This document shows positions 24,798-63,115 of a stretch of 64,000 bases of DNA, piece by piece. Made by a program: the position numbers and the translations under genes. Source of the DNA: Callorhinchus milii (lineage: Eukaryota); NCBI RefSeq assembly GCF_018977255.1, contig NW_024704742.1, positions 70,868,001-70,932,000 of the forward strand, written 5' to 3'. The stretch's first letter is position 1, and the number at the start of each line of letters is the position of its first letter. Below the pieces are notes generated by a model. It was given only the letters and a program-made list of their open reading frames with translations. It ran no database searches and had not been told where the DNA came from.

Positions 24798-25251
24798 ATG
24801 GAGCATCATGCATCGATGGAGCAAATCAGCCAAACTCACCCTCAACACGAACCCATCAGCTTCGGTATCGACCAGATCTTGAACACCAGCGACCCTGGCT
24901 GTTGCATGCACCCGGGTCAGAGAGCTCCTGAGACGGATTACCACTTTGGGACGCACCCCTATGGCTCTCATGCCAATACCCACTGCATTAACTCCTATGG
25001 CAGTAACGCTTGTGGCATGGCTGGGCTGCCGAGTTCCTTCAACGTTAACATGAGCATTAATATGAATGTGAATATGAACGCTGGCTCTGGGGTTATCAGA
25101 GTGCCGGCACACAGACCCATGCCCCCACCCCCTCCCCTCTCGGCTGGGATGCCCACTGTGCCCAGTATGACTAGCAGTCTGGCCAACTTGTCCACTGTAA
25201 CCTTCCCCTGGATGGAGAACAGCAGGCGCTTCGCCAAAGACAGGCTAACAG
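24798..25251 (+). CDS. TLX2: TLX/HOX11 homeobox gene, coding exon 1 (probably TLX2)
   Basis: ATG at 24798. Encodes MEHHASMEQISQTHPQHEPISFGIDQIL (eh1/TN motif), GVIRVPAHRP and the FPWME hexapeptide, ending RRFAKDRLT. Phase-1 donor G|GTGAGT at 25251/25252. Family is secure; the paralog call is less so. Confidence 0.93.
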
Positions 25252-25261
25252 GTGAGTCTTG

Positions 25262-25457
25262 TGTGGATGTGTGTGTGTGTCTGTGTGTATATGTATATGT
25301 ATGTCTGTGCGTGTGTATATATACATGTGTGTGTATACATGTGTATGTGTTTATACATGTGTGTATGTATATATGTATGTGTGTATATATATGTGTATAT
25401 GTATATATATGTGTGTGTGTATATATATATATGTATGCGTATATATATGTGTGTATG

Positions 25458-25488
<31 letters not shown>

Positions 25489-25532
25489 ATATATATGTGT
25501 GTGTGTATATATATATATGTATGTGTGTGCGT
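25262..25532. repeat. (TG/TA)n microsatellite at the start of TLX intron 1
   Basis: Directly visible; extends the exon-1 ORF artificially. Confidence 0.95.
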
Positions 25533-28218: not shown

Positions 28219-28253
<35 letters not shown>

Positions 28254-29374
28254 CCGCCCCCCTCAATATTCTCTATGGGGCAAATTCGGTATTTTTAAAT
28301 AATTCATATGTAAAATTTCTCATATAGTTCTTGCAGTAAAAAAAATTCCACCTGTGTTGAGACTCACAGTAATATTTCAGAGCACCAGAATTTTGCAGAT
28401 CATGAGAACAGTCTTCAAGGTTTTTTAAAAAAATAATAATCCTTGCATTTGGAGTATAGTAGCATATTGGTTAGAGCGCTCGCCTCGCAAGCGAAAGGAC
28501 CCGGATTTGATTCCCGGGCAGGGCGAAACCTTAGGCACGTTTCCTTGCCTCAATTTAGTAGCAGTAAGTAGGAACCTGGTTGTTAATCGATTGCTGGATC
28601 CCTTTCTGGGGATAATAATCCTTTCAAAAAAAATAATAATTTGGTCACTCAATCCACGACTGTTTGTGGGACATTGCTGTGCATAATTGGCTGTCACTTT
28701 TCGCCCACAAAATACAAAATTCAATTTATTCTGTGAAGTGTTTTGAAATGCCTCAATAATAATAATAATAATCCTTGCATTTGATATAGCACCTTTTCAT
28801 GTCTTCAAGAAGTCTCAAAGCGCTTCACAGAATATACTGTAAAATGAATCGACTGTGTATTTTGTGGGTGAAATGCGGCAGACAATTGTGTACAGCAGTG
28901 TCCCACAAACAATCGTGGATTGAAGTGAACAATTTATTATGTTTTTGAAGGAATTATTACCCCTGGAAAAGTGATCCGCCAATCAACCAACAACCGGGTG
29001 CCTACTTACTGCTAGATAAACAGTGGTGTGTGGAGTAGGGAAGCTTTCTCATCCTTTCGCGCTGCCAGGCGTTACGTGATAAGGCGATGTATCAAATGCA
29101 AGGATTATCTGTAGTAGTATTACACTGTATTATATGTGTTTTCACGTCATGAGGACGTCTCAAAGCCCTTCACGGGATTTATTGTAAATTGTAGCGGCCA
29201 TACATTCTGTGAGTTCCTTTAAGAACCACATTTCAAAACAGGGTTTGTAATTCAAAGTTACAATTGAAAATTAATATTTAACCCCTCGAATAAAGGTTCT
29301 TAAACACACATTCAAAGCTGCCTGCCCACCTACATAGGAGGCATGTGTTTTGCAGAACTATGTTGAGTTAAGTT

Positions 29375-29641
29375 ATAACTCAAGAGGGAAAATGAGAAGA
29401 AATTTTTTTACACAGAGAGTTGTTCGGATCTGGAATGCATTGCCTGAAAGGGTGGTGGAAGCCAATTCAATAGCAGCTTTTAAGAGAGAAGTAGATAATT
29501 ACTTGGGAAGGACACGTTTGCACGGCTGTGGGGAGAGAGCGGGGGAATGAGATTGAATTGGATAGCTCTTTTCAAAGAGCCAGCACAGACACGATGGGCC
29601 AAATGGCCTCCTTCTGTGCTGTATAATTCTATGATTCTATA
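29375..29641 (+). mobile_element. CR1 3' end
   Basis: MRRNFFTQRVVRIWNALPERVVEANSIAAFKREVDNYL followed by the tail GGCCTCCTTCTGTGCTGTATAATTCTATGATTCTAT. Confidence 0.88.
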
Positions 29642-29710
29642 ACTAATTACTGTGTGAAATTGACTGCCGCGTTTCACTCACAAAATACACGGTCACTCCA
29701 CTTTACAATT

Positions 29711-30032
29711 GGAGTTCTGTAGCTCAGTGGTTAGAGCACTCGCTTTGCAAGCGAGAGACCTGAGTTCAATTCCAGGCAGAGGGCGAAACCTTGAGCAAGT
29801 TTCCTTACTCCACACAGAGCCTAATAACAATCCCTCCAAAAAAACAAAACAATAATAAATCGGTCATTTTCAATCTACGACTGTTTGTGGGACACTGCTG
29901 TGCGCAATTGGCTGCCGCGTTCGCCCACAAATATACAGTCAATTCACTTTACAGTATATTCTGTGAAGCGCTTTGGGACGTCTAGAAGACGTGAAAAGCG
30001 CTATATCAAATGCAAGGATTATTATTATTATA
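29711..30032 (+). mobile_element. SINE family A, short subfamily
   Basis: Nearly identical to 36844-37163, with intact arm CTCGC-TTTGCAA-GCGAG. Confidence 0.92.
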
Positions 30033-31182
30033 ATATATTCTATATCAAATGCAAGGATTAATATTCTTATAATGGAATCCCGGAAAAGCATTACAATACA
30101 TTTAGATTTGGAAGCAGGCCTCAAACAAGCAAATTGTTGAATTATTTTGTTGTCTTTGAAGTTGGTTTTCTGTAAGAAAATGTGCACAATAGTCGCAACA
30201 ATAATAGTCCCTGTGTTTGGTACTGTGCCTTTCACACTGTCAGGAGAACGTCTCGAAGCATTTTTCAGAGCTTACTGGAATCTGTAGTGACTGTGTGTTT
30301 TAGACAGCGGAATTTACAAAGAGACGCTTTCCGAAATCAAGGCTGTATTTAAGAATTTGTCAAATTCTGGAATGGGACAGAAATAGAGAAATTGATTTTT
30401 TAATGCTTGTTACTAGATGTCTGAAGAGATGAATGTCTGATTGTTTTATTATAATCATATTATGCCTTATTTCCTTGAGACGTCTCAAATCACAGAATTT
30501 ACAGAATTAGGGGATACAGAGTTCATAACTCAGTCTGACTTTGTTTACTGTATTTACTGCCCTTTGGATGGGACATTAAATCCAGGTCCCATCTGCCTGT
30601 TCAGGTGGATGTTAAAGATCCCATGGCACTATTTGAAAAGAGAAGGGAGTTTCTCTCTCCCGGTGTCCTGGCCAACAATCCCCCAAATAAAATTGTTTGC
30701 TGACTCCATGACTGTTTATTCGCGCAAATTGGCGGCCCATTTCACCTACAAAATACACAGTCAAGAACCACTTTATAATATATTCTGCGAAGCGCTGTGA
30801 GATGTCTCAACAATGTGATATGGCGCTATATCAAATTCAAGGATTATTATATGCAATAAAAAATTACATCTCTAATAAATGTATAAAACACAATATAATT
30901 CCTTGAAATTTTCGTATATGGTTTTACCTTATAGATATTTTGTGTAAAGCGTTTCCTCCATTAGATTTAAATGAAGCCTCCTTCAGTAAGTGTTGAGAGC
31001 ACATCAGAGCTTTGATACAGACCAGCGTTGTGTGATATCAACATTGAAAGTAGTGCATGTAATGAGATCGAGACCTTGGGAAATGCTTTAGAGACACTTA
31101 AAAAAGCTTTTGATTGGTTTGCTATACTTTTAGTACAAAAGAAATCCAGAGAGCAGGGGGACATGTTCAGAGATCAAATATA

Positions 31183-31547
31183 TGGAGTCCTGTAGCGTAG
31201 AGGTTAGTGCATTTGCCTCGCAAGCGACAGGACCTAGGTTCGATTTACGGGCAGGGCAAAACCTTAGGCAAGTTTCCTTACTCCACAGTCTCTGTTTACC
31301 TTGCAGTAGGTAGGAACCTGGTTGTTAGTCGATTGGCAGATTGCTTTCTGGGGGTAATAACACCTTCAATAAGTAAATAAACATAATAATAATTTGGATA
31401 CTCAATCCACGTCTGTTTGTGTGTAATTGGCTGTGTGTTTCGCCCATAAAATATACAGTCAATTCACTTTACAATATATTCTGTGAAGCGCTGTGAGATG
31501 TCTCGAACACGTTATAAGGCCTATATCTAATACAAGAATTATTATTG
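31183..31547 (+). mobile_element. SINE family A, long subfamily
   Basis: Head GGAGTCCTGTAGCG.., central block and tail. Confidence 0.85.
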
Positions 31548-32177
31548 TTGTCAGAGTCCGGGTTAACAGAGTAGCGCTTTATCACGGTGCAACAGCTCGG
31601 CTCCTGTTCAGTTTAAATCCTAAAATATCCATTCTTTTGTTACTATTAAAGGTCAGGAAGACTTTAGAGAACAGAATAAATAGGAAGAAGATATGGCAAA
31701 AGAGAGAGAGGAAAAGTGACAAGAGAGAGAGAGAGAGTGGGAGACACTGAAGAGAGAAAGATAGAGAGATGGAGGGCAAGAGAGAGAAAAAAGAATTTCA
31801 TGTTTTTTAAAGCAAAACATATCAAAGCCTTTACAACACTTGCTGTCAGATGTAGTCACTGCTTTTGTGCCCAGAGAGAGAGAAGGAAGGAGAAGAAAAA
31901 GAATATAGGGAGAGGGTGAAAGAGAGAGGGGAAAAAAAGGGAATGAGGGGAGAGGGGATAGAGGTGTACAGCAGTACAGGAGAAGGTTCTGTACCCATCT
32001 ATACCCTTAATCCCCCTCCCCACAAATAGTCATAGATTGACCAAATTTATTTATTTTTTGGAAGGATTTTTATCCTCGGAAAGCGATCTTTTCGCTTGCG
32101 AACCTTGCAAAGGGGCAAAGAAAGAGAGAGACGGATGGTAAGAAAGAGAAAGACAAACAGAGGGAGTGAGAAGAAGG

Positions 32178-32982
32178 ATAATAATAATAATACTTGCATT
32201 TGATATAACGCTTTTTCAAGTCTTCTAGACGTCTCAAAGCGCTTCACAGAGTATATTGTAAAGTGAGTTGACTATACCTGTGGGCAAAATGCAGCAGCCA
32301 ATTGCGCACAAAGTGTCCCACAAACAGTCGTGGATTGAAGTGACCAGTTTTATTGCTTTTTTTTTCTTGAAGGATTATTATTAGGTGTGTGGTAAGGAAA
32401 CTTGCCCAAGGTTTCGCCCTGCCCAGAATTGAACCCGGGTCTCTCGCTTACAAGGCGAGTGCTCTAACCATTGAGCTACACGACTACTAGAGTTAAACTA
32501 TAGAAGGATTTTTTTAATGTCTCATCCACCTGAATAGGGCATAGGGTAGAGTCCTGTAGCTCAGTGGTTAGAGCATTTGCCTCGCATGCGAGAGACCTGG
32601 GTTCTATTCCCGGCAGGGCTAAATGTTGGCCAAGTTTCCTGACTACACACGCCTCTATTTACCCAGCAGTAAGTAGGAACCCGGTTATTAGTCAATGGGG
32701 GGAATCATTTTTCCAGGGGTAATAATTCCTTCAAACAAAATAATAATAAATTGGTCACTTCAAACCATGACTGTTTGTGGGACACTGCTGTGTGCAATTG
32801 GTTGCTGCGTTTCACCCACAAGATATACAACAACAACAACTTGGATTTATATAGCACCTTCCACGAGGGCAACATCTCAGAGTGCTTATACGATCAATTC
32901 ACTTCATAGTATATTTTGTGAAGCGCTTTGAGACGTCTAAAAGACATGAAAAGCTCTATATCAAATGCAAGGATTATTATTA
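32178..32982. mobile_element. Two divergently oriented family A SINEs (- at 32178-32487; + at 32548-32982)
   Basis: Heads point away from each other across a spacer of about 60 bp. Confidence 0.85.
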
Positions 32983-33719
32983 TACTGTTAACTCCATTGA
33001 ATGCATTTTGTAGGCGAAACAAGGCATCCAATTGCACAGAATAGTGTCCCACGAATAGTCGTGGATTGAATGACCAATTTTTGTTTAATTGTAAGGCAAA
33101 GTAGCCGGCAGGCAAAGAGAAGGTGGAATTTGAGCCTTGGAATCGTGACGTTTTTAACAGAGATATAATAATAATAATCTTTACATTTAATACAGTATCT
33201 TTCATGCCGGGAGGATATCTTCACAGGATATTCAATAAAGTGTAGTGACTGTTTTTGTAGGGAAATTGGCAGCCAATTTGCACACAGCAATGTCCTAGAA
33301 AAAGTCATGATTGATTTTATCTGGGGGATTGTTGGCCAGGACAATGGGAGAGAGATATTAGATATCACCTTAAGCAAATTTCGTTACTCCACAATCCTTT
33401 GATTACCGAGCAGTAAGTAGGAACCCAATTGTTAGTCAAATGGTGGATCAATTCCAGTGGTGATAATCCCTCGAAAATTTGGTCACTTAATCCATGACTG
33501 GTTTGTGGGACACTGCTGTATGCAATTGGGTGCTGCTTTTCACCAAGAAAGTACACAGTCAATTAACTTTACAGTATAGTCTATGAAACGCTTCAAGATG
33601 ACATAAGGTCCTATATCAAATGCAAGGCTTATTGTTATATATAACAATACTCCCCCCAACCCCGGCCACATCATCCACCTACCCCTACTCCACACCACCC
33701 CAACCAAAAACAAAAGCAG

Positions 33720-34200
33720 TGAAAATGCAGGAAGGGGTAAGGAGAGAGGACACCAGTTTAAGAGTCTCCAAACCAGAAAGAGTTCCGCATATGTATGCCA
33801 TCCACATATGGAAATTTCCCTTTGCCTGGAATGAAATGCAAACTGTCTCTCTCTCTCTCTGGAGGGATGCACCCTGCTTACCTAACAAGAGGCAATGCTT
33901 CAGGTGTGCTTTGGGGCAACGGCTGGAGTCTAACCAGCTAAAAACCGCATAGCTTGCCATTGAGAGCACTGTCTGGCAAGCTTTCTTGCTGCGTATCCAG
34001 CAAGGACCACCCTACCCATTACGGCTTTGGTTTGCAGGGTTAACGGGAGCTGAGTGGGAAGAGTCCCTGCCCCCAGTGACTGGTGTGCCCTTTCGCGCCC
34101 TGCTGATGTGCCTGGCTGGGCTGTGCTGTCATCAGTAGTGCCGCGGACTTGCCTGGCTCAGGAACTGGACTAGAGAACATCAGAGGGTGGGCTCTATTCT
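33720..34200 (+). repeat. Unclassified dispersed repeat, longest copy; others at about 150-510 (+), 38090-38270 (+), 46548-46895 (-) and 52280-52460 (+)
   Basis: Shared blocks CTGCTTACCTAA, GAGTCTAACCAGCTAAAA, TGTCTGGCAAGCTTTC, AGGACCACCCTACCCATT and GAGCTGAGTGGGA..CCCCAGTGACTGGT. Confidence 0.75.
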
Positions 34201-35616
34201 GACATTGCTTTACCAAGCAAATCCATTTTTTTAAAATCTATGACTGTGTGGGGGACATTGCTGTGTGCAATTGGCTGCCGCGGTTTGCCCACAAAATATA
34301 CACTCAATCCATTTTCCAAAATTCTGTGAAGCGGTTTGAGACATCTCAACGACGTGATGAGGCGCTACATCAAATGCAACAATTATTGTTATCACCTGGG
34401 AGCCAGTTCTGTCCGATTACCCCCCTACCTCCCTCCCCTCCCAGAGGAGAACGTTCCATTCCCAGACTAAAGAGAGTCGAGACGAACATCAGCAGATCCC
34501 TAGTTCGATACTAAAGATGAAATACATTCAGCACAATTAATCAGAGGCTATTAAGTTAAGTTAGAATCACCGCATTGGGGGGAAAATTACATACTAAACG
34601 AGTAATGATGTAAATTAAGGAGTCAATTGGCAATGCATTAATTTTACATATAAAATTCCTGGGATTTTCCATCTATTTTTTGGGATACATTACCTGCGGT
34701 CAGTCCATGCTTAGGTCTCAAAATATCCATGTAAATAGTTGGCACTTTTTTCCCCTCTGTGACGTCAAAACAGATATCCCCTGCTCTATGGAGGAGGGTA
34801 GACTGTGGTGTTCAGGTTGCTGCTGAGCTAAATGGGCTCAAGGAAACATGTACAATGTTAACACAAGATAAGTGGAGGCCCGTAGTGTAGTGGTTAGAGC
34901 AATCGCCTCGATTCCCAGGTGGAGCGAAAGCTTAGGTTTCCTTACTCCGCACACCTGTGTTTAGCTAGCAGTAAGTTGAAACCCAGTTGTTAGTTGAATG
35001 GCAGATCGCTATTCCAGTGGTAGTACTCCCTTAAAAAAATATTGATTCTTTCAAACATAGATTAGATAGTTTTCTTTTAGAAAATAACATTATGGGATAT
35101 AGTACATAGGTGGTTTGGGACATATGTGCATGTGACCACCAGGAAGGTGGAAGGCGAAATAGATTGACCTTGGTCTTTTTTCACCTCGCATTTCTTACAT
35201 TCTTATGTAATAACTTTGTTACTCAATCCACGACTGTTTATGGGACACTGCTTTACACAATTGGCTTCCGTGTTTCACCCACAAAATACACAGTCAATTC
35301 ACTTTACAGTATATCATGTGAAGCGCTTTGAGACGTCTCAACAACGTGATAAGGTTCAATATCAAATGCAAGGATTATTATATTATTATGTGTCAGTCTA
35401 GCTCAGTTAGCAGCATTTTCGCCACCGACTCAGAAGGTCTGTTCAGGTGGATATTAAAGATCCCTTAGTGCTGTTCAATGGACCATGGCAGGGCAATGAA
35501 GGTGAATTGATTGTACTTTCAAAGAGCCGGCATACATCAAATGCAATAATAATAATCCTTGTAGTTGATACAGAGCCTTTGACATCAGGAAGATGTCTCA
35601 AAGAGTTGCACAGAGC

Positions 35617-35852
35617 CTCATAGAATTATACAGCACAGAAGGAGGCCATTCGGAGTCTCATAGAATCATAGAATTATACAGCACAGAAGGAGGCCATTCG
35701 GAGTCTCATAGAATTATACAACGCAGAAGGAGGCCATTCGGCCCATCATGTCTGTGCCTGGTCTTTGGAAAGAGCTATCCAATTCAATCCCATTCCCCTG
35801 CGCTCTCCCCATAGCCCTGCAAACTTTTCCTCCCCAAATAATTATCTATAAT
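35617..35852 (-). mobile_element. CR1 3' end with a triplicated terminal tail
   Basis: Reverse complement of the 29375 tail; CATAGAATTATACAGCACAGAAGGAGGCCATTCGG occurs three times. Confidence 0.85.
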
Positions 35853-36312
35853 TATATGACTATCTTTAATACTTGTAAAGAGAAGGGAGTTTCTCTTTCC
35901 CAGTATCCTGGATGACAATCTCCCAAAATAAACATAAAATTGTTCACTCACTCCAGGGTGTTTGTATGGACGTCGCTCTGTAAATTGTTTGCTGTATTCG
36001 CCTACAAATACACAGTCACTACACTTTACAGTAAATCCCTTTGAGACCTCTTGAAGACATAATAATAATCTTTGCAGTTGACATAGTGCCTTACCACAGA
36101 ATTTACTGTAAAGTGAATTGACAGTATTTTGTGAGTGGAACAAGGCAGCCAATTTCACACAGCAGACGTGATATGCATGATAAGATGCTGTATTAAATGT
36201 GAGGATTATTATTTATTATAATTATGTGTGTACATAGGATACATGCAGATATATACATAGCTCTGAAACCAAGCACAAATTACATCTACACTTATAAGAA
36301 ACTTCTGTAAAC

Positions 36313-36612
36313 TATAATAATAATCCTTGCATTTGATATAACGCTTTTAACGTCTTCCAGACGTCTCAAAGCACTTCACTGAACATACTGTAAAGTGAAT
36401 TGACTGTATATTTGTGTGCGAAATGCGGCAGCCAATTGCGTACAGCAGTGTCCCACAAACAGTCGTGGATTGAAGTGACCAATTGATTGTTGCTTTTTCT
36501 TGAGGGATTATTATTAGGCGTGTGGAGTAAGGAAACTTGCCCAAGGTTTCGTCCTACCGGGAATCGAACCCAGATCTCTCGCTTGCCAGGCAAGTGCTCT
36601 AACCACTGAGCT
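36313..36612 (-). mobile_element. SINE family A, short subfamily
   Basis: Reverse-complement match to the family. Confidence 0.88.
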
Positions 36613-36843
36613 GAATGTTGTTGTGAGGTGAATGGGCAGCCAACTTGTGTCAGTGGCATCCCGCACACAGCAATAAGATGTGTAAACAATTGATTTTGAT
36701 TACTTTTTGGAGGCGGAAGGAGGAATTTGGACAAGGCGGGGGTTATAAACAGATTAACCGGAAAAACACTACACTATTCTTTGAAACAACAAAAACACTT
36801 TACAGTGTTTCACACACAAAAGACAGTCACTCCACTCCACTTT

Positions 36844-37163
36844 GGAGTCCTGTAGCTCAGTGGTTAGAGCACTCGCTTTGCAAGCAAGAGACCTGAGTTC
36901 AATTCCAGGCAGGGCGAAACCTTGGGCAAGTTTCCTTACTCCACACAGAGCCTAATAATAATCCCTCCAAAAAAACCAATAATAAATTGGTCATTTTCAA
37001 TCCATGACTGTTTGTGGGACATTGCTGTGTGCAATTGGCTGCCGCGTTCGCCCACAAATATACAGTCAATTCACTTTACTGTCTGTTCTGTGAAGCGCTT
37101 TGGGATGTCTAGAAGACGTGAAAAGTGCTATATCAAATGCAAGGATTATTATTATTATTATTA
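36844..37163 (+). mobile_element. tRNA-derived SINE family A, short subfamily, full length
   Basis: A box TAGCTCAGTGG; anticodon-like arm CTCGC-TTTGCAA-GCAAG; B box GAGTTCAATTCC; shared 3' body; tail TATCAAATGCAAGGA(TTA)n. Confidence 0.92.
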
Positions 37164-37199
37164 CTTCCCATTGCTCATCTCTAGGTTTGTCCACTAGCA

Positions 37200-37910
37200 A
37201 TTCAGCCCAGTTTACTGTGGTCAATACTTAAATTTAGCACCTTGGTTTGGGACTCCCCCTTCTCGCTCTCAAATCTAATGTCAAATTCAATCATATTATC
37301 ATCACTATTTGCAAAGTGTTCCCTTACTGTCAGATTATTGACTAAATCTGGCTCATTACTCATCACCAAATCTAGTATGGCTTGTTCTCTTGTTAGTTCT
37401 AACACATATTGTTCCAAAAAGCTGTCCTGATATACATTCGAGAAATTTGTTACCTTTACTACCTGAGGTGTCCTGCTTCTCTCAGTCTATGTGAAAATTA
37501 AAATCTCCCATCATAACCACGTTGCTTTTGCTACATGCTTCCCTGATCTCCGTATTTATATATTTCACCACTGAATCACAATTCTCCGGAGGTCTGTAGA
37601 CTTCTCCCAATAGAGTCTTACTTCCTTTGCTGTTCCTTATTTCTACCCACAGTTGCCCTTACTGAAATCTCTCCTTTCCACTGCTGTAATAGTGTCTTTT
37701 ATCAATATTGCTACTCCTCCTCCTTTCCCAATGTCCCTGTCTTTTCTAAAGATCTTATAGCCTGGAATACTCCCAGTCCTGCCCAGCTTGCAAGAAGATC
37801 TCTGAAATGGCTATTACATTATACCCTTTGAGCTGAATTTGTGCTTCCAACTCACATGTTTTATTTCTTACGCTACGTGCATTTGTGTACATAATGTTTA
37901 TTTGGGTAAC
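37200..37910 (-). mobile_element. CR1-clade LINE fragment (apurinic endonuclease region)
   Basis: EQYVLELTREQAILDLVMSNEPDLVNNLTVREHFANSDDNMIEF on the minus strand, typical of the CR1 ORF2 EN C-terminus. Confidence 0.85.
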
Positions 37911-38881
37911 TGTCACTAATTTTCCTCTATATGTTCTGACAATGTTTTTCTCTCACATTTTGATTTGCTACACCTTGTGTAATAACTTCCTATTACCTTT
38001 TCTTTTCCTATAGTGTTTATGTTACCTTGATCGTTGCTCTTGTCCTCTACTTTCCCTATGTTTTTGTTATTTTTACCACCCACGCTTACCAACTTACCTG
38101 TTAGGATTTTGGCTTGTAGTGTCAACAGGAGCTGAGTGGGAGGTTTCCCTGCCCCCAGTGACTGGTCGCCCTTCCGAGTTCTGCCGATGAGCCAGGCTGG
38201 GCTGTGCTGTCATCACCAGTGCCCTGGAATACTGAGGACCTGCCTGGTTCAGGAATCAGACTAGAGACTCACAAACAATAATGGGATGAATTGTCAATTG
38301 AATGATTTTTTTGGGGGGTGAAGGAGTATGGAGGAATTCTTGGCCAGACAAATTACCTATTACCAGGGAGAACTTCCACCTGGTCCAGATTTACTCTATT
38401 TATGCCGTGTTGCAAATTGAGTCAGAAGGTTGTGGGTTCAAGCCCCATGTAGGGACTTGGAATCACATCGTCTAAGATGACACTCCAACGCAGTGCTGGA
38501 GATGTGTTGCATTGTCGCAGGTGCTGTCTTTGGATGAGACATTAAACCAAAGTCCCATCTGCCTGTTCACGTTAAAGATCTGTTAAAGATACCATGGCAC
38601 ATCAGCCTATTCTGTGAGCTCAAAAGTTTGTGGCTTGAACTCACAACCTTCTAACTCAGAGATGACAGCACTGCTGACTGAGCCAGGCTGACAAGGAAAG
38701 GTGATTGTGGTGGGGAAGTAAGAAAGAAGGGAAAAAGAATAAAGGTGTCGTGGGGAACAGCGTGGGGGGGGGGTGAAATTACTTCAGGAAAGCGTGCAGT
38801 AAAATAATCATTAATAATAATCCTTGTGTTTGATACAATGCCTTTCACACCGGGATTATGTCTCAACTCACTTCACTGGAT

Positions 38882-39190
38882 TTAATAATAATAATAATCC
38901 TTGCATTTGATATAGCACTGTTCATGTCTTCAAGATGTCTCAAAGCGCTTCACAGAATATATTGTAAAGTGAATTGACTATGTTTTGTGGGCGAAACACA
39001 CCATCCAATTGCACACAACAGTGTCCCACAAATAGTCGTGGGTTGAGTAATCAAATTATTATTGTTTTTTTCTTGAGGGATTATTATCAGGGTGTGGAGT
39101 AAGGAAACTTGCCCAAGGTTTCGCCCTGCCGGGAATCGAACCAGGTCTCTCGCTTGCGAGGCAAGTGCTCTAACCACTGAGCTACAGGAT
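38882..39190 (-). mobile_element. SINE family A, short subfamily
   Basis: Reverse-complement match to the family. Confidence 0.88.
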
Positions 39191-39884
39191 CTCTTTAGAG
39201 ATTTACTCTAAAGTGTAGTGACTGCGTATTTTGTAGGCAAACACAGCAGCCAATTTGCGCACAGCAATGTCCCGCAAGCAACCAATTGGAGTGAATGACC
39301 AATTTTATTTTGGGGGATTGTCAGCCAGGATACCGGCAGAGTAACTCCCTTCTCTCAGAAATATGGATTGATATTCTATACACAAAGTGGTACATTTGTT
39401 GTAAGTCTATTCCACAAGTGATATGGATTTAATGTAGGGATACAGTGTACTGGTCACAGGATGACCACTATAACACTCAACAGCAATTTAAAGTTAAATA
39501 GAAAGTTACGGCACTAAAACAGACTGCTCAACCCAACCAGTCCATGCCGGTGTTTATACTCCACATGAGTCTCCTAATCCCCTCTATTCCCCTCTCCTAC
39601 ATCCCTCTATTCCCTTTGTACACCCCCCTATTTCCCTCTCCTACACTCCTCTATTCCCCTCTCCTGCACTCCTCTCTTTCCAAGTGTCCTGGCCGACAAT
39701 CCCCCAGATAAACTGGCTTTGTGTGGGACATTGCATTGAGCAAACTGGCTGCCTCATTCCCCTACAAAATACACAGTCACTACACTTGAAAGCAATTGAG
39801 CTGTTAGGACATTGCATCGGACATCAGGATTATTATGATGTATGATTGTTTGCAAAACAGAACTGCACAAGTATTTTACATGTG

Positions 39885-40305
39885 TGACAACCTGGCTCAC
39901 TGATAGCTCTCTCATTTCTCAATCAGAAAATTGTGGGTTCAAGTCCCCACGTCAGGACTTGGAACCCATATAGTCCAGGCTGTCACTCCAGTGTCAGTGT
40001 GGGAGGCACAGCCCTTCAGATGAGAAGTTAAACTGAGGTCCCATCTGTGCCTGTTCAGACAGATGTTAAAGATCCCAAAAGAGAAAAGAGTCTCTCTCTC
40101 CTAGTGTCCTGGATGACAATTCTTGAGATAAATTACTCACTTTTTTATGGCTGTTTGTGGAACGTTGTTGCGCAAAATAGGCTGCCACATTCGCGCACAA
40201 AATATACAGTTACTACACTTTACAGTGTATCGTATGAAGTGCTTTGAGATGCCCACCTTAGGTGAAAGGTGCTGTATCAAATGTAAGGATTATTATTATT
40301 ATCAA
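39885..40305 (+). mobile_element. SINE family B (Deu-type)
   Basis: Head, core and tail as at 810-1250. Confidence 0.78.
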
Positions 40306-42059
40306 TACTATTATTGGAAAACACTAACGTAATTAAACAATTATAAATTAAAGGGGCACCATGTTCACAGAAACATGATGAGTTACTCTCGAGGGTATAC
40401 AATTAAAATCAACTTAAAAAAAACATAACGCGATAGATTTAGGTGTAAATTTAGGATTATCATCAGAGCAAAAGGAGGAGAAGGTGTGAAGATATTTTTG
40501 TTAGACACACAGGGTTGCTAAACTGTGGATTGCTTTACCATAATTGCTGCTGAGGCTTTTTTAATCTATCTCTGGAATTTTCACGTGTAGGTGGGCTGCA
40601 TGGAATTCTCAGTTTGGTTTGGAGCCTGGTGATGGTTGACCCCCAAAAAATGGAGACTTTATCATAATGCTTAAAAGGGAATTGGATAAATACCAGTGGG
40701 GGAGCGAGCACTAGCACAGACATGATGAGGAGAGAGCAGAGGAATGGGATTAGAGTAGGGAGCTCCAGTGGGAGAGTGACCACAAGCAACAGCAACAAAT
40801 TAGATTTGTGTAACTAACGCCTTTCACTTCAGGAGGACGCCCGAAGACACTGAACACGGAAACAAAGGGAGAGAGAGCATGTGAATAGCCTTACACTGTG
40901 CTGTAAACAGACTGCACATGAAGAACAATGGAAGTAGTAAAGGTGACTTTGAGTGGCAGGTTGGCAAGGCCCATGTAATTTACGGCACTTTACTAGGAAT
41001 GGGCGTGCTCCAATCTTGTTGCCGGGAGGGGAAAAGTACCTGTGATCTCTTTTTGAGCGCTCGTGCCCCAGTGAAACATTCTCCCACCGTCACAGCTAAT
41101 TTGCTACATTTTGACAATCCCAAGTATCACCAGCCAACGCCCGCCTGCCAGCCAGTTGGGATTTGTTTGAATCTATGCAACCAGTTTTTCATCATGTACA
41201 AAAATAACAACAGTCCCCACATTCGCTACAGAGCCAAGAACCTCAAAACAGCTTTGCGGAGACTTGCTTATCAAGTTAGTGATGTGTGTTTTGTAGCAAT
41301 ATAGGAACAGGAGGAGGCCATTCAGCCTCTCAAACCTGTTCCGCCATTCTATAGATCATGGCTGATCTGTACCTCAACTCCATTTTCATTTGCTTCATAT
41401 AATAAAAACACGTGCATTTGATATAGCACCTTATCACATCGTTGGGATGTCTCCAAGCGGTTCACAGAGTTTATTGTAAAGTGGATTGACTGTATTTTGT
41501 GGGCGAAATGCAGAAGCCAATTGTGCAAACAAAAATAATTTTGGTTACTCAATCCCTGACTGTTTATGGGACACTGCTGTGCGCAATTGGCTTCCGTGTT
41601 TCGCCCACAAAATACACAGTCAATTCACTTTATGATACATTCTGTGAAGCGCTATGATTCGTCTCAACAATGCAATAAAGCACTGTATCAAATGCAAGAA
41701 TTATTATTATGTAAATAGGAACAATCTGATCATTGGTAGCTTTGAAGTGGATTAGCTGTGTAGCCTTGGCAATCTCTCAATGTATCAACGCTCAAACTCA
41801 TTGCATATGATAGATATTTGCCTTGATGCACAGTGCAGCTGACGCCATCTGATTGCCTATAAATGACATTACTTTTTTGCAGCCTATTGTATATTCCTGC
41901 TCTCACACTGCTTCCCCAGTCCACACTGCTTGACAGTCTGATGATTTAATTCCCAGACCTTGTTCTGTGTCATGCAAACCTGACGTTAATGCATAACAGT
42001 TTGTTGTCAGTAGTGCTTCAGTAGTGGCTGTGGACAGGCCACCTCAGCCCCGTCCACAG

Positions 42060-43760
42060 CCACCCCTCATGACCCACACCCTACCCATCCCCCCTATACT
42101 CCTTCGACCCTATCTCTCCCTCCTCCCTTACCACGACTGTCCGCAAGCTCAAACCCACCACCTGCTCCCTCGATCCCATCCCCACTTTTCTCCTCATTTC
42201 CCAGCTCCATCTTCTGGCCCCATCTCTTGCCCGATGTCATCAACCTCTCCCTGTCCACCGGTTCAGTTCCCACCCCCCTAAAAACGGCCGTCATCACCCC
42301 CATCTTGAAACAACTTTCCCTGGATCCATCCCTCCTCTCCAGCTACCGCCCCATCTCTAACCTCCCATTCCTCTTCAAGGTCCTGGAACGAGTCATCGCG
42401 CTCCTTTCTTTCTCGCCATTCCCTCTTTGAACCCCTTCAATCCGGCTTCTGCACTGCCCACAGCACGGAAACAGTCCTGGTCAAAGTCACTCATGACATT
42501 CTGAACATCTGTGATCAGGGCTCCCTCTGCCTCCTTGTCCTCCTCGACCTCTCTGCCGCCTTCGACACTGTCGAACACTCCATCCTCATACACCACCTCT
42601 CCGCTTTACTCAATCTTCACGGACCTGCCCTTGCCTGGTTCGATTCCTATCTCTCTCACCGTCCCCTCTAACATTTTCTCCTCCAGCCCCCGCACTGTCA
42701 CGTCTGGTGTCCCTCAGGGCTCTGTCCTTGGCCCTCTCCTCTTTAATATCTACATGCTCCCCCTTGGTGACATCATCCGCAGACATGGGGTCAACTTCCA
42801 CATGTATGCGGATGACACCCAACTCTATCTTTCTGCTTCCACCCTCAACTCCAGGACCACTGCTGTCCTGACAGACTGTCTGTCGGACATCAAGTCCTGG
42901 ATGAGGGCAAACTTCCTACAGTTGAATGTGAACAAGACTGAGGCCCTCCTGATTGGCTCACACCAGCGCCTCAGCACCTCAGGCTCCGGCAGCATCAACC
43001 TCCATGGTTGCACACTTCAACTCACCGCCAGTCAGGAACCTCGGTGTCTTGTTCGACCCTCAACTGTCTTTTCTCCCCCACATTCAAGCCATGACCCGCT
43101 CTGCCTTCCCTCACCTCCGTAACATCGCCCGACTCTGCCACTACCTCACCCCTCAGGCCACTGAAACTCTTGTTCATGCCTTCATCACCTCCAGGATTGA
43201 CTATGCAAATGTCCTGATTGTTGGCCTTCCCAACTTCTCCCTCCACAGGCTGCAGATAATCCAGAACTTTGCATCCCGTGTCCTCTCCCGCACCAAATTC
43301 CATGACCCCATCTCCCCCACTCTCGCCCGACTCCATTGGCTCCCTATCCTTCAGAGGATCCAGTTCAAGATCCTGGTCCTCACATACAAAGCCCTCCATG
43401 GCTTTGCCCCACCCTATCTCTGCGACCTCCTAACCCGTACCAACCCACCCGTTCCCTCCGCTCAGCCGGCTCCGGCCTGCTCCACGTCCCCCGACCGACC
43501 CGCCCTACCATTGGTGGGAGAGCCTTCAGCCACTCTACCCCCAACCTCTGGAATTCCATCCCCCAATCACTCCGCCTCGCACCCTCCTTAGCCTCCTTCA
43601 AGTCCCACCTCAAGACCCATCGGCCAACCCCTTCCCCTCCCCTCCCTTCTCCCCCCAACCCCAGCTCGGGTCTGAAATGCTGTGCACTGTCCAGCGCCTT
43701 GGGACGTCCTCCCAATGTGAAAGGCACTATACAAATGTAATCTTGTTGTTGTTGTTGTTG
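42060..43760 (+). mobile_element. L2-clade LINE, 5'-truncated, in TLX intron 1
   Basis: [45 protein letters not shown] (RT catalytic motif) and LHWLPILQRIQFK; 3' tail ends in (TTG)n. Confidence 0.93.
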
Positions 43761-43859
43761 CTTGGCACAGTGTGTGAGAATACTGGAGTTAGCTTTAAAT
43801 GTGTCTATATCTGAAGAGAGCCATCAGAATGAGAACGTATGAGTCAGCCTGATTCGGTT

Positions 43860-44390
43860 GACAACAAGAATTTGCAATTGCACAGCGCCATCCACATGGG
43901 GCAATGTCTCGGAGAACTTCACAGTGGGGGGAGCCTGACGCCGAACTGGGGGGAGGGAGGACATGACTGTAAGCAGGGTCGAGGCGGAAGGTTTTTAGTC
44001 ATGATCTAAAAGAGGGGAAGGAGAGGGCAAGGCGGCAGGATTGGGAAGAGAGGTCCAAAGCTTCAGGGTGTAATGGCTGAAAACACACCCAACGATGGTG
44101 GAAAGGAGGGGACAAGAGGCAAGCAGGAGGCTAGAGCTGAGCAGAGGCAGCAGGTAGTGAAATGAGGAGTAAGTCGATTGGAGATGCAGGGAGGTGCCAG
44201 GGCATGGAGAGGATCCTGAAGTCGACCCGTTCTGTGATAGAGAGCCATTGAATCCTAGCGAGGACTGGTGTGATGGGGTACAGTGTTTAGTGCTGGTGAG
44301 TAAGTGGGCGGTGGAGTTCTGAATCATTTGTGTGTCGGTAGTGGAGATGCTTAGACCGGCGAGGAGGGCACTGGAATAGTCGAGGCAGTC
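43860..44390 (-). mobile_element. Degenerate L2 3' fragment
   Basis: CLDYSSALLAGL, IQNSTAHLLT and GCVFSHYTLKLWTSLP on the minus strand. Confidence 0.75.
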
Positions 44391-45160
44391 TGTAGTGCTC
44401 TTGCCTCTATTGTCGAAAGATGGTGGGTTCACACCCCGTGTCGGGATCTTTGAGCTCAGAGTTGAGGCTGACACTCCAGTGCAGTGCTGCATTGTCAGAG
44501 ACTCCGTCATTTCAGAAGAGACATTAAACAGAGGTGCCCTCAGAAGAAATTGGTCATTCACCTCAGGACTTTGTAGGACTTTGCGATACGCAAAAGAGTC
44601 ACTTTGTAGGCGAAAGCAGAGGCCAGTTTGCTCACAATGACGTCCCAGCAAACAGGCTTGAGGTGGAGTCCCGTAGCAAGGTGGTCAGAGCACTCACCTC
44701 GCAAGCAGGAAGACCCAGCTTCAATTCCTTTAGGCAAATCTTAGGCAAGTTTCCTTACTCCACATACCTCTGTTTAGCTAGAAGGAACCCGTTTGCTCGT
44801 CAATTGGCGGATCGCTTTCCGGGAGTAATAATGCTCTGGGATGCTACCCTGTGTGAGGAGTGCTATAAAATGCAATTTGTTGCTAGGTAAACAGAGTAAG
44901 GAATAAGGAAATTTATTTAAGGTTTCACACCACTCAGGAATGAAATCTGTGTCCTCTCGCTTGCAAGGCAAGCTTGCTAACCACTAAAACTATGAGACTC
45001 TACAGTACATCACATTTATTTTACTGTAAATCCTGTGAAGCGCTTTGAGACGTCCTCCTGACTTCAATTGTAAGGATTATGATTATTCTTGTTATGGTCA
45101 TCGCTCCTGCTTTCCTGTCCCTGTCGCTATCACTCTCTCTTTCTCACTCTCTCTCTCCAG

Positions 45161-46973: not shown

Positions 46974-47193
46974 GAGGCAAACAGCGGAGGAGAGGGAGGC
47001 TGAAAGACAACAAGCAAACAGGATATTGGCTCAACTACAACAGGAAGCATTTCAGAAATCGCTGAACCAGCCCATTCAGGCAGATCCTGTGTGTCTGCAC
47101 AATGCTTCTCTCTTCGCTCTTCAGAACTTACAACCTTGGGCTGAAGACAGCACCAAAATCACATCAGTGGCCTCAGTAGCATCAGTGGTGTGA
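46974..47193 (+). CDS. TLX2: TLX homeobox gene, exon 3 (C-terminus; not in the ORF track)
   Basis: Acceptor TTTGTCTTTCTAAAG|G. Encodes [76 protein letters not shown] (TGA 47191-47193). Phases are consistent: 454+238+220=912 nt. Confidence 0.94.
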
Positions 47194-57288: not shown

Positions 57289-58100
57289 AAACAACAACAA
57301 CAAGATTCCATTTATAAAGCGCCTTTCACGTCAGGAGGACGTCCCAAGGCGCTGCACAGTTGGGTCATGACCCGAGCAGGGGGGAAATGGTCAGGGTGAG
57401 GGGAGGGAGCGAGGAGGGGAAATGGTCAGGGTGAGGGGGAAGGGGGGGCGAGGAGGGGGAAATGGTCAGGGTGAGGGGAGGGAAGGGAGGGAGCGAGGAG
57501 GGGGGAAATGGTCAGGGTGAGGGGAGGGAAGGGAGGGAGCGAGGAGGGGTAAGAGAGTCGAGAGGGGAGCTGAAGGCTCGGTCAAAGAGAAAGGTTTTGA
57601 GACCGGCCTTGAAGGAGGAAAGGGAGGAGGCGGCGAAGGCACTGGGGGATGGAGTTCAGAGCCTCGGGGCTGAGAGGCTGAAGGCCCGGCCACCGATGGT
57701 AGAGCGGTTGGGGCGGGGGATGTGGAGCAGACCGGAGCCAGAGGAACGGAGTGTACGGGCAGGTAGGTAGGGGATAGTAGGTTGGAGAGGTAGGAGGGAG
57801 CAAGGCCGTGAATGGCCTTGTAGGTGAGGATGAGGATCTTGAATTCGATCCTCTTGGGGATGGGGAGCCAGTGGAGGCGAGCGAGGGTGGGAGTGATGTG
57901 GTCGCGGTGTCTGGTGCGGGACAGTACACGAGCTGCAGAGTTCTGAATGACCTGCAGTGTGGAGGGAGGTGCGGGAAGGCCGGCGAGGAGAGATTTCCCA
58001 TAGTCCAGCCTTGAGGTGATAAAGGCGTGGACCAGAGTTTCAGCCGCGTGAGGGGTGAGGTAGTGCCGTAGTCTGGCCATGTTCCGGAGGTGATGCAAGG
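57289..58100 (-). mobile_element. L2-clade LINE 3' fragment with a ~40-bp tandem expansion in its 3' UTR
   Basis: AETLVHAFITSRLDYG and LHWLPIPKRIEFK on the minus strand; (CAA)n at 57290; about four copies of GGGGAAATGGTCAGGGTGAGGGGAGG.. at 57380-57545. Confidence 0.9.
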
Positions 58101-58439: not shown

Positions 58440-58702
58440 CATTCTTGTTGTCACATGCATCCCACCCGCTGATTGGACGAGAGCCCCGTCAATCGGCCGC
58501 GGCCGCAGCACAAGCCGTCTGATTGGCTGGCATCAGCCTCCTCCCGCCCTCTCCCGCTCCCTGCGGTGTGACTGCGGTGACGTGTGTCAGGCCGCCCGGA
58601 GGCTCCGCCCCGCCGCGCTGTGATTGGTTGTGAGGCGGGCGGCTGGGGCCTGTCAATCACCTGCGCCAGGACGCGACTTCCGGTCCGCAGGGGAGAGAAG
58701 CG
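58440..58702 (+). promoter_or_regulatory. CpG-island promoter of the downstream gene
   Basis: GC/CpG-rich. ATTGG at 58472, 58522 and 58623; CTGTCAATCA at 58650-58659; ETS-type ACTTCCGG at 58676-58683; immediately 5' of GCGATGG. Confidence 0.75.
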
Positions 58703-58763
58703 ATGGAGGAGAAGAGGGACCCGCAGTACCCGAGTCTGGTCACCCCCAGTGTCTACATGTTCG
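58703..58763 (+). CDS. First coding exon of a nucleophosmin/nucleoplasmin (NPM)-like gene; remainder lies outside the window
   Basis: Good Kozak context GCGATGG. Encodes MEEKRDPQYPSLVTPSVYMF plus one nucleotide, then donor G|GTGAG. Length, the P-x-x-Y-[LM]-F-G end and the phase-1 junction match NPM1 exon 1 (..RPQNYLF-G). TLX-NPM linkage is known (TLX3-NPM1-FGF18). Confidence 0.6.
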
Positions 58764-58789
58764 GTGAGGACCAGCTGGGCCCGGGGGGG

Positions 58790-61700
58790 GGGCAGGGCTG
58801 TGGTGTGTGTTGGGGAGGGATTGTGTCAGGGCTGTGTGTGTGTTGGGGAGGGGGTTGTGTCAGGGCTGTGTGTGTGTGTGTTGGGGAGGGGGTTGTGTCA
58901 GGGCTGTGTGTGTGTGTTGGGAGGGGGTTGTGTCAGGGCTGTGTGTGTGTGTGTTGGGGAAGGGGTTGTGTCAGGGCTGTGTGTGTGTTGGGGAGGGGGT
59001 TGTGTCAGGGCTGTGTGTGTTGGGAGGGGGTTGTGTCAGGGCTGTGTGTGTGTGTGTGTTGGGGAGGGGGTTGTGTCAGGGCTGTGTGTGTGTGTGTTGG
59101 GAGGGGGTTGTGTCAGGGCTGTGTGTGTGTTGGGGAGGGGTTGTGTCAGGGCTGTGTGTGTGTGTGTTGGGGAGGGGGTTGTGTCAGGGCTGTGTGTGTG
59201 TTGGGGAGGGGGTTGTGTCAGGGCTGTGTGTGTGTTGGGAGGGGGTTGTGTCAGGGCTGTGTGTGTGTTGGGGAGGGGTTGTGTCAGGGCTGTGTGTGTG
59301 TGTTGGGGAGGGGGTTGTGTCAGGGCTGTGTGTGTGTGTGTTGGGGAGGGGTTGTGTCAGGGCTGTGTGTGTGTGTGTTGGGGAGGGGGTTGTGTCAGGG
59401 CTGTGTGTGTGTGTGTTGGGGAGGGGGTTGTGTCAGGGCTGTGTGTGTGTGTTGGGGAAGGGGTTGTGTCAGGGCTGTGTGTGTGTGTTGGGGAGGGGTT
59501 GTGTCAGGGCGTTGTGTGTTGGGGAGGGGGTTGTGTCAGGGCTGTGTGTGTGTGTGTGTTGGGAGGGGGTTGTGTCAGGGCTGTGTGTGTGTTGGGGAGG
59601 GGGTTGTGTCAGGGCTGTGTGTGTGTTGGGGAGGGGGTTGTGTCAGGGCTGTGTGTGTGTGTTGGGGAGGGGTTGTGTCAGGGCTGTGTGTGTGTGTGTT
59701 GGGGAGGGGGTTGTGTCAGGGCTGTGTGTGTGTGTGTGTTGGGGAGGGGGTTGTGTCAGGGCTGTGTGTGTGTGTTGGGGAGGGGGTTGTGTCAGGGCTG
59801 TGTGTGTGTGTGTTGGGGAGGGGGTTGTGTCAGGGCTGTGTGTGTGTGTGTGTTGGGAGGGGGTTGTGTCAGGGCTGTGTGTGTGTTGGGGAGGGGTTGT
59901 GTCAGGGCTGTGTGTGTGTGTTGGGAGGGGGTTGTGTCAGGGCTGTGTGTGTGTTGGGGAGGGGGTTGTGTCAGGGCTGTGTGTGTTGGGGAGGGGTTGT
60001 GTCAGGGCTGTGTGTGTGTGTGTGTGTTGGGGAGGGGGTTGTGTCAGGGCTGTGTGTGTGTGTTGGGGAGGGGGTTGTGTCAGGGCTGTGTGTGTGTGTT
60101 GGGGAGGGGGTTGTGTCAGGGCTGTGTGTGTGTGTTGGGGAGGGGGTTGTGTCAGGGCTGTGTGTGTGTTGGGGAGGGGGTTGTGTCAGGGCTGTGTGTG
60201 TGTTGGGGAGGGGGTTGTGTCAGGGCTGTGTGTGTGTGTTGGGGAAGGGGTTGTGTCAGGGCTGTGTGTGTGTTGGGAGGGGGTTGTGTCAGGGCTGTGT
60301 GTGTGTTGGGAGGGGGTTGTGTCAGGGCTGTGTGTGTGTGTTGGGGAGGGGGTTGTGTCAGGGCTGTGTGGTGTGTGTTGGGGAGGGGGTTGTGTCAGGG
60401 CTGTGTGTGTGTGTGTGGGAGGGGGTTGTGTCAGGGCTGTGTGTGTGTGTGTTGGGGAGGGGGTTGTGTCAGGGCTGTGTGTGTGTTGGGGAGGGGGTTG
60501 TGTCAGGGCTGTGTGTGTGTGTTGGGGAGGGGGTTGTGTCAGGGCTGTGTGTGTGTGTTGGGGAGGGGGTTGTGTCAGGGCTGTGTGTGTGTGTGGGAGG
60601 GGTTGTGTCAGGGCTGTGTGTGTGTTGGGGAGGGGGTTGTGTCAGGGCTGTGTGTGTGTGTTGGGGAGGGGGTTGTGTCAGGGCTGTGTGTGTGTTGGGA
60701 GGGGGTTGTGTCAGGGCTGTGTGTGTGTGTGTTGGGGAGGGGGTTGTGTCAGGGCTGTGTGTGTTGGGAGGGGGTTGTGTCAGGGCTGTGTGTGTGTTGG
60801 GGAGGGGGTTGTGTCAGGGCTGTGTGTGTGTGTTGGGGAGGGGGTTGTGTCAGGGCTGTGTGTGTGTGTTGGGAGGGGGTTGTGTCAGGGCTGTGTGTGT
60901 GTGTGTTGGGAGGGGGTTGTGTCAGGGCTGTGTGTGTGTGTTGGGGAGGGGGTTGTGTCAGGGCTGTGTGTGTGTGTTGGGGAGGGGGTTGTGTCAGGGC
61001 TGTGTGTGTGTGTTGGGGAGGGGGTTGTGTCAGGGCTGTGTGTGTGTTGGGGAGGGGGTTGTGTCAGGGCTGTGTGTGTGTGTTGGGGAGGGGGTTGTGT
61101 CAGGGCTGTGTGTGTGTGTTGGGGAGGGGGTTGTGTCAGGGCTGTGTGTGTGTTGGGGAGGGGGTTGTGTCAGGGCTGTGTGTGTGTGTTGGGGAGGGGG
61201 TTGTGTCAGGGCTGTGTGTGTGTGTTGGGGAGGGGGTTGTGTCAGGGCTGTGTGTGTGTGTGTTGGGGAGGGGGTTGTGTCAGGGCTGTGTGTGTGTGTG
61301 TTGGGGAGGGGGTTGTGTCAGGGCTGTGTGTGTGTGTTGGGGAGGGGGTTGTGTCAGGGCTGTGTGTGTGTGTTGGGGAGGGGGTTGTGTCAGGGCTGTG
61401 TGTGTGTTGGGAGGGGGTTGTGTCAGGGCTGTGTGTGTGTTGGGGAGGGGGTTGTGTCAGGGCTGTGTGTGTGTTGGGGAGGGGGTTGTGTCAGGGCTTG
61501 TGTGTGTGTGTGGGAGGGGGTTGTGTCAGGGCTGTGTGTGTTGGGGAGGGGGTTGTGTCAGGGCTGTGTGTGTGTGTGTTGGGGAGGGGGTTGTGTCAGG
61601 GCTGTGTGTGTGTGTTGGGGAGGGGGTTGTGTCAGGGCTGTGTGTGTGTGTGGGGAGGGGGTTGTGTCAGGGCTGTGTGTGTGTTGGGGAGGGGGTTGTG

Positions 61701-63115
61701 TCAGGGCTGTGTGTGTGTGTTGGGAGGGGGTTGTGTCAGGGCTGTGTGTGTGTTGGGGAGGGGGTTGTGTCAGGGCTGTGTGTGTGTTGGGGAGGGGTTG
61801 TGTCAGGGCTGTGTGTGTGTTGGGGAGGGGGTTGTGTCAGGGCTGTGTGTGTGGTGTTGGGGAGGGGGTTGTGTCAGGGCTGTGTGTGTGTGTTGGGGGG
61901 GGTTGTGTCAGGGCTGTGTGTGTGTTGGGGAGGGGGTTGTGTCAGGGCTGTGTGTGTGTGTGTTGGGGAGGGGGTTGTGTCAGGGCTGTGTGTGTGTGTT
62001 GGGGAGGGGGTTGTGTCAGGGCTGTGTGTGTGTTGGGGAGGGGGTTGTGTCAGGGCTGTGTGTGTTGGGGAGGGGTTGTGTCAGGGCTGTGTGTGTGTGT
62101 GTTGGGGGGGGGTTGTGTCAGGGCTGTGTGTGTGTTGGGGAGGGGTTGTGTCAGGGCTGTGTGGTGTGTTGGGGAGGGGGGTTGTGTCAGGGCTGTGTTG
62201 TGTGTGTTGGGGAGGGGGTTGTGTCAGGGCTGTGTGTGTGTGTTGGGGGGGGGGTTGTGTCAGGGCTGTGGTGTGGGGATTGTGTCAGGGCTGTGTGTGT
62301 GTGTTGGGGAGGGGGTTGTGTCAGGGCTGTGTGTGTGTGTTTGGGAGGGGGTTGTGTCAGGGCTGTGTGTGTGTTGGGGAGGGGGTTGTGTCAGGGCTGT
62401 GTGTGTGTGTTGGGGAGGGGGTTGTGTCAGGGCTGTGTGTGTGGTGTTGGGGAGGGGGTTGTGTCAGGGCTGGGGGGGGGGGGGGGTTGTGTCAGGGCTG
62501 TGTGTGTTGGTGGGGGAGGGGTTGTGTCAGGGCTGTGTGTGTGTGTGTTTGGGGGGGGGGTTGTGTCAGGGCTGTGTGTGTGTGTGTGTGTTGGGGAGGG
62601 GGTTGTGTCAGGGCTGTGTGGTGTGTGTTGGGGGAGGGGGTTGTGTCAGGAGGGGGTTGTGTCAGGGCTGTGTGTGTGTGTTGGGGAGGGGGTTGTGTCA
62701 GGGCTGTGTGTGTGTTGGGGAGGGGGTTGTGTCAGGGCTGTGTGTGTGTTGGGGAGGGGGTTGTGTCAGGGCTGTGTGTGTGTGTTGGGGAGGGGGTTGT
62801 GTCAGGGCTGTGTGTGTGTGTTGGGGAGGGGGTTGTGTCAGGGCTGTGTGTGTGTGTGTGTGGGGAGGGGGTTGTGTCAGGGCTGTGTGTGTGTGTGTTG
62901 GGGAGGGGGTTGTGTCAGGGCTGTGTGTGTGTGTGTGTGGGGGAGGGGGTTGTGTCAGGGCTGTGTGTGGTGTTGGGGAGGGGTTGTGTCAGGGCTGTGT
63001 GTGTGTGTGTTGGGAGGGGTTGTGTCAGGGCTGTGTGTGTGTGTTGGGGAGGGGGTTGTGTCAGGGCTGTGTGTGTGTTGGGGAGGGGGTTGTGTCAGGG
63101 CTGTGTGTGTGTCGG
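58790..63115. repeat. 4.3 kb G/T-rich minisatellite, unit GTTGGGGAGGGGGTTGTGTCAGGGCT(GT)n, roughly 30-45 bp
   Basis: Directly visible tandem array with variable GT and G-run lengths. Confidence 0.97.

Follow-up and report, generated by a model that had tools for sequence, protein, structure and literature searches.

Downstream of TLX2, and on the same strand, a 64,000-nucleotide stretch of the Callorhinchus milii genome (hereafter the window) carries a real spliced first exon of a nucleophosmin-family gene. We put the probability at roughly 85% that the gene is C. milii NPM4, which arose alongside NPM1 by whole-genome duplication and was kept on the LBX2/TLX2 paralogon. The features of the locus, all on the plus strand, are as follows.

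24798..25251, +, TLX2 coding exon 1; first of three exons whose joined protein is identical to XP_007904855.1
45161..45398, +, TLX2 exon 2 with the homeodomain (Pfam Homeodomain, E 6e-22; AG/GT ends)
46974..47193, +, TLX2 exon 3, ending with the stop codon
58440..58665, +, promoter-like region, rich in CpG and lacking a TATA box (putative function; motifs assigned by consensus)
58472, 58522 and 58623, three inverted CCAAT boxes
58544, 58592, 58605 and 58637, four GC boxes
58677, ETS-type CTTCCGG in the 5' UTR part of exon 1
58666..58702, +, 5' UTR part of exon 1, covered from 58666 onwards by the longest contig (contigs do not fix the start site)
58703..58763, +, coding part of NPM-family exon 1 (20 codons plus 1 nt, phase 1), ending at the contig junction
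58764..64000, +, intron 1 with a GTGAGG donor, extending past the window (more than 5.2 kb)
58793..63112, +, GT-rich minisatellite of 4.3 kb in intron 1 (period about 36, 122.5 copies)

The first exon and its splice junction

The coding part of exon 1 runs from an ATG at position 58703 through 20 codons plus one G to position 58763 (61 nt, phase 1) and is directly followed by a GTGAGG donor at position 58764. The ATG has a G at both -3 and +4, and the region 58460-58765 combines a GC content of 0.68 with an observed/expected CpG ratio of 0.85. A CpG promoter, a Kozak ATG and a 61-nt exon with a phase-1 GTGAG donor had all been proposed in an earlier, sequence-only reading of this DNA, and all were recovered at these positions. 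No TATA box was found in the promoter-like region 58460-58765. The CCAAT, GC-box and ETS-type motifs were assigned by their consensus sequences, and the stretch 58440-58665 presumably functions as the promoter. The density of CCAAT boxes is not distinctive, as some ten further sites in the window have at least three per 200 bp. The 9-mer TGTCAATCA, a PBX/MEIS-type site, occurs once in the NPM promoter, at position 58651; two such elements lie among CCAAT boxes in the promoter-like CpG region of TLX2 (24080-24300).

Taken by itself, the exon is weak evidence for an NPM gene. Layouts in which a Kozak ATG is followed, after 15-25 codons, by a phase-1 GT(A/G)AG occur five times on the two strands of the window, and the ATG/donor pattern alone is therefore not rare. 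The exon 1 peptide gave no match to Pfam and none to the PDB, and its score against teleost npm1b was equalled or beaten by 134 of 5000 shuffles (p about 0.03). These results speak for an alternative in which the gene is of the NPM2 or NPM3 type, or encodes an unrelated protein that resembles NPM by chance.

The junction was assessed on assembled contigs. Part of the stretch is found in 12 listed public runs, none of which is on record as RNA and nine of which were guessed to be RNA; contigs were taken from four of the 12, belonging to two studies, all guessed to be RNA and with no DNA run among them. Each of the four runs yielded one contig that exits the genome at position 58763/4 and proceeds with the same 30 nt, and it is on the strength of this identical continuation in 4/4 runs that we regard exon 1 as real. 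Over the exon, the contigs are 99-100% identical to the window (in one run, 1 difference in 99 nt); they give neither the start site nor the expression level. Translated by eye in the frame of the exon, the junction codon is Gly, followed by Cys-Met-Leu-Lys-Gly-Asp-Arg-Lys-Glu, and the last two of the 30 nt start a codon for Tyr or a stop codon. Exon end and continuation together thus present the aromatic-x-Phe/Trp-Gly-Cys-x-Leu core start (compared by eye), and in teleost npm1b the nucleoplasmin domain PF03066 begins at the matching point (residue 15). The chance of a Gly-Cys-x-Leu match is about 7e-4 on a rough estimate with uniform codons. The phase-1 exon 2 opening with (G)C-x-L that had been predicted from the genomic letters is accordingly present as Gly-Cys-Met-Leu in all four runs, and what is joined to position 58763 is an NPM core-like sequence.

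Since the RNA nature of the four runs is a guess and a DNA run as control was not among them, a spliced contig could stem from a processed copy. The genomic exon would then be a relic, with the contigs deriving from such a copy or from a near-identical duplicate elsewhere, and the failure to find exon 2 in the genomic sequence of the window is in line with this. We nevertheless consider a relic highly improbable, as the contigs match the window almost perfectly and diverge from it precisely at a canonical donor, with an intact CpG-rich promoter upstream, and as the runs used hold 43-217 million contig letters compared to about 900 million in three other listed runs.

From position 58764 to the end of the window, no acceptor followed by Gly-Cys-x-Leu was found, nor did any pyrimidine-tract AG match the pattern used. 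With no exon 2 in the remainder of the window, intron 1 must therefore exceed 5.2 kb. Its minisatellite starts 30 bp into the intron, is almost free of CpG and is strongly G/T-skewed with runs of G, which makes it a candidate G-quadruplex or R-loop former. All three plus-strand frames are free of stops for 1502-1593 codons across this tandem repeat; we rejected the resulting ORFs of about 1500 codons as genes and regard them as repeat artefacts, and the remark in the sequence-only reading that spurious 1500-aa ORFs bury the exon was to the point.

The exon may be unannotated in public protein sets. A word-based search of a collection containing C. milii TLX2 returned no protein with the exon 1 N-terminus, and an Atlas search with the exon peptide gave no usable match; two matches in a 50% representative library were tandem-repeat proteins and were rejected. 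With a short query that included non-coding sequence, such negative results carry little weight and only hint in this direction. Elsewhere in the window, Rfam detected only 12 tRNA-like matches, probably heads of SINEs, of which there are many tRNA-headed copies, as is ordinary for the C. milii genome. Decayed LINE fragments (L2/CR1-like, by eye) were noted at 8400-9950, 42100-43620 and 57550-58100.

The TLX2 neighbour and the type of NPM gene

The three TLX exons encode a protein with 100% identity to the TLX2 annotated for C. milii, XP_007904855.1 (P0004). In a tree of 21 TLX sequences, hand-chosen from 120 listed matches and including a single TLX3 on a long branch, the TLX2 of the window grouped with three batoid TLX2 sequences (92/85) and apart from the TLX1 clade (100/100); TLX3 of C. 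milii is another protein, encoded on a contig of 19.6 Mb. By identity and tree, the neighbour is thus TLX2 and not TLX1 or TLX3, in agreement with the TLX2 paralogon that had been proposed, and the distance from its stop codon to the NPM-family ATG on the same strand, estimated before at about 11.5 kb, is 11,510 bp. Intron 1 of TLX2 (25252-45160) has a length of 19.9 kb, and several ray-finned fish TLX2 isoforms (P0015, P0018, P0025, P0050) contain an extra segment of 60-80 aa at the exon 1/2 junction.

In order to assign the gene within the NPM family, the nine residues after the junction Gly were compared by eye with rows of NPM proteins. They match teleost npm1b at 5-6/9, Xenopus Npm1 at 6/9 and human NPM1 at 4/9 positions, compared to only 2-3/9 for human NPM3, Xenopus NPM3, dogfish Npm2a and C. 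milii Npm2b. From the 4-6/9 for the NPM1/npm1b rows against 2-3/9 for the NPM2/3 rows, we conclude that the gene is NPM1/NPM4-like and not NPM2/3-like, as judged from these residues. The pattern Leu-Lys-small-Asp-basic-basic-Glu after the Cys is also present; it is a trait of NPM1 and NPM4 by our reading of the rows compared, not by a published definition. NPM2a, NPM2b and NPM3 share with the C. milii gene a nucleoplasmin core that starts with Gly/Thr-Cys-x-Leu, but match it at only 2-3/9 of the residues that follow, and the NPM2 and NPM3 genes are placed on the FGF17 and TLX1/FGF8 paralogons in PMC2446394. Despite the poor matches of the exon peptide, an NPM2- or NPM3-type gene or a chance resemblance is thus very hard to credit, as the predicted Gly-Cys-x-Leu was found, with Lys, Asp and Glu after it where NPM1/4 have them, and as the N-terminus of C. 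milii Npm2b is different.

With about 30 residues known, the nine-residue match does not separate NPM1 from NPM4 (6/9 compared to 5-6/9), and NPM4 was preferred over NPM1 because of synteny, not because of sequence or a tree. The residue after the Cys is Met in C. milii, Thr in 32/32 npm1b matches showing the motif (35 matches, three of them without the N-terminus) and Glu in the NPM1 and NPM3 rows compared. As a character, the loss of Glu carries little weight, since Met and Thr differ from each other and some Npm2 rows also lack the Glu. The first intron of human NPM1 is in phase 1. Like vertebrate NPM1 of the TLX3-NPM1-FGF18 block, the C. milii first exon ends with aromatic-x-Phe-Gly and continues with similar residues, with 20 codons before the Gly compared to 19 in human NPM1; unlike NPM1, which is linked to TLX3, it is linked to TLX2, and the Glu after the Cys is replaced. 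With teleost Npm4/npm1b it shares the position next to Tlx2, the NPM1/4-type core start, the absence of Glu after the first Cys and, probably, the place of a cassette-exon boundary. It differs from npm1b in its holocephalan host, in the Met in place of Thr and in its leader, which is 4 residues longer (Gly at 21 compared to 17) and divergent, as the sequence-only reading had anticipated for the N-terminus.

The synteny has precedents in print. Wotton et al. (PMC2446394), who named Npm4 in 2008, describe a teleost block Lbx2-Pcgf1-Fgf24-Npm4-Tlx2, with Npm4 between Fgf24 and Tlx2, and four paralogons; Fgf18-Npm1 belongs to that of Tlx3, and in teleosts Fgf24-Npm4 lies between Pcgf1 and Tlx2. 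The npm4/fgf24-type block of fishes that had been invoked for this locus is therefore a published one; the paper lists no Npm at the amniote Tlx2 locus. Its supplement reports a little-skate Npm4, based on seven ESTs, which groups with the Npm4 of teleosts. The competing view, that the gene is NPM1 itself or a lineage-specific NPM1 duplicate that moved beside TLX2, can draw on the 6/9 match to Xenopus Npm1, which is no worse than the 5-6/9 for npm1b. It would require a move to the very position that Npm4 occupies in teleosts according to PMC2446394, and a chondrichthyan member of the Npm4 clade is already reported in the same source; we therefore rate it as quite improbable and retain the NPM4 assignment.

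Teleost npm1b and the ends of the contigs

A motif scan yielded one fish NPM locus (L001), whose exon retrieved 35 proteins out of 40 candidates. Most of these are named 'nucleophosmin 1b' and have about 297 aa with PF03066 and PF16276; there was no chondrichthyan among the 35 matches, every named one being from a teleost. The closest solved structures to npm1b are those of nucleophosmin. In Siniperca, Enoplosus and Oryzias melastigma, npm1b and tlx2 are on contigs of equal length, which indicates the same chromosome but not adjacency, and a gene model of the seabream Sparus joins npm1b and a protein that shares 91% identity with Takifugu Fgf24. Teleost npm1b thus apparently corresponds to the Npm4 of the 2008 paper and would lie upstream of fgf24 on the same strand. 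In the RefSeq npm1b-fgf24 read-through models (P0134, P0161, Sparus aurata), NPM residues 1-225 are joined to Fgf24 after its signal peptide. Such models may reflect genuine read-through transcription or the merging of two genes during annotation, and they seem to link npm1b and fgf24 proteins in a single 90% cluster (that of P0133). Human NPM1 has two C-terminal tryptophans; in an alignment, npm1b (P0133) retains the first and has a Phe in place of the second.

The four contigs run 513, 516, 516 and 514 nt past the junction and end at codon 192, which, barring net indels, corresponds to 188-189 in teleost numbering. In all three long/short pairs of npm1b proteins compared (two within-species, one cross-species), a skip of 33 aa starts after residues 188-190; by eye, that of the short human NPM1 isoform starts at residue 195, no more than about 3 codons away from the contig ends. 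We first read the contig ends as those of a short NPM terminating at poly(A), and demoted this reading since the ends match the npm1b skip boundary. Such a short form of NPM4, with core and acidic tail (under about 190 aa) and devoid of the C-terminal domain, would account for the fact that all four contigs stop 513-516 nt past the junction, as the spread of a few bases fits a poly(A) end. Apart from the coincidence with the npm1b cassette-exon boundary near the human NPM1 skip, it is at odds with the teleost orthologs, which have about 297 aa and PF16276. We consider the short form unlikely, albeit less so than any of the other alternatives discussed so far; it is compatible with NPM4 identity, and its probability overlaps with that of the main reading. 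A break of the contigs in the acidic-tract repeat is a third possibility. The meeting of the contig ends with the npm1b cassette boundary suggests instead that the contigs end by an assembly break at a conserved cassette exon and that the gene encodes a full-length NPM1-type protein.

A probable NPM4 on the TLX2 paralogon of jawed vertebrates

NPM1 is an established nucleolar chaperone. By analogy to npm1b and NPM1, C. milii NPM4 would be expressed from a housekeeping-type CpG promoter and would give a protein of roughly 300 aa, as in the orthologs. Its core would form pentamers, its acidic tracts would bind histones and ribosomal proteins, and its C-terminal domain would bind nucleic acids, while a cassette exon close to codon 192 would be optional. 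The protein is predicted to act as an NPM1-like nucleolar chaperone for histones and ribosome assembly, and FGF24 would be expected further downstream on the same strand.

NPM4 is known from bony fishes and a skate and is absent from mammals, and the C. milii gene extends this known duplication story. As NPM4, its linkage to Tlx2 and Fgf24 and a skate sequence have been in print since 2008, the C. milii case is less surprising than it would otherwise be. A four-member NPM model with npm4 lost from mammals is found in PMC6233590. The gene list of PMC11457510 has fgf24 in 2 chondrichthyans and contains no npm; the text of PMC12955574 compares four FgfD/Tlx syntenic blocks with skate among the species, and its figures may show NPM4, whereas two of its supplements gave no matches in a search. 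The portions of PMC3667041 and PMC3420111 covered here hold nothing further on NPM4. Within the literature accessible to us, which is short of most subscription papers, no report of a genomic TLX2-NPM4 linkage in a cartilaginous fish was found.

A more far-reaching proposition combines several parts: that C. milii keeps the ancestral TLX2-NPM4(-FGF24) block, this being the first chondrichthyan genomic placement found; that the true exon 1 is absent from public protein sets or given a wrong start there, with the 4.3-kb minisatellite concealing it; and that a skippable exon common to NPM1 and NPM4 is older than the second vertebrate genome duplication, at which the two genes separated. We regard this combination as doubtful, and put it forward only tentatively. 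Its last part would follow from the sharing of the skippable exon, since an alternative splice common to NPM1 and NPM4 would be older than their separation; if the cassette-exon reading is true, the alternative splice of NPM1 is therefore older than the NPM1/NPM4 split.

The locus adds a holocephalan data point to the four-paralogon LBX/TLX/NPM/FGF model. The results also suggest that teleost 'npm1b' is a much older ohnolog and not a co-ortholog of NPM1 from the teleost duplication, as is already implied in PMC2446394, and this status matters for zebrafish models of NPM1 leukaemia. The linkage of TLX2 and NPM4 would be ancestral to jawed vertebrates, and the absence of NPM4 from mammals would be a loss.
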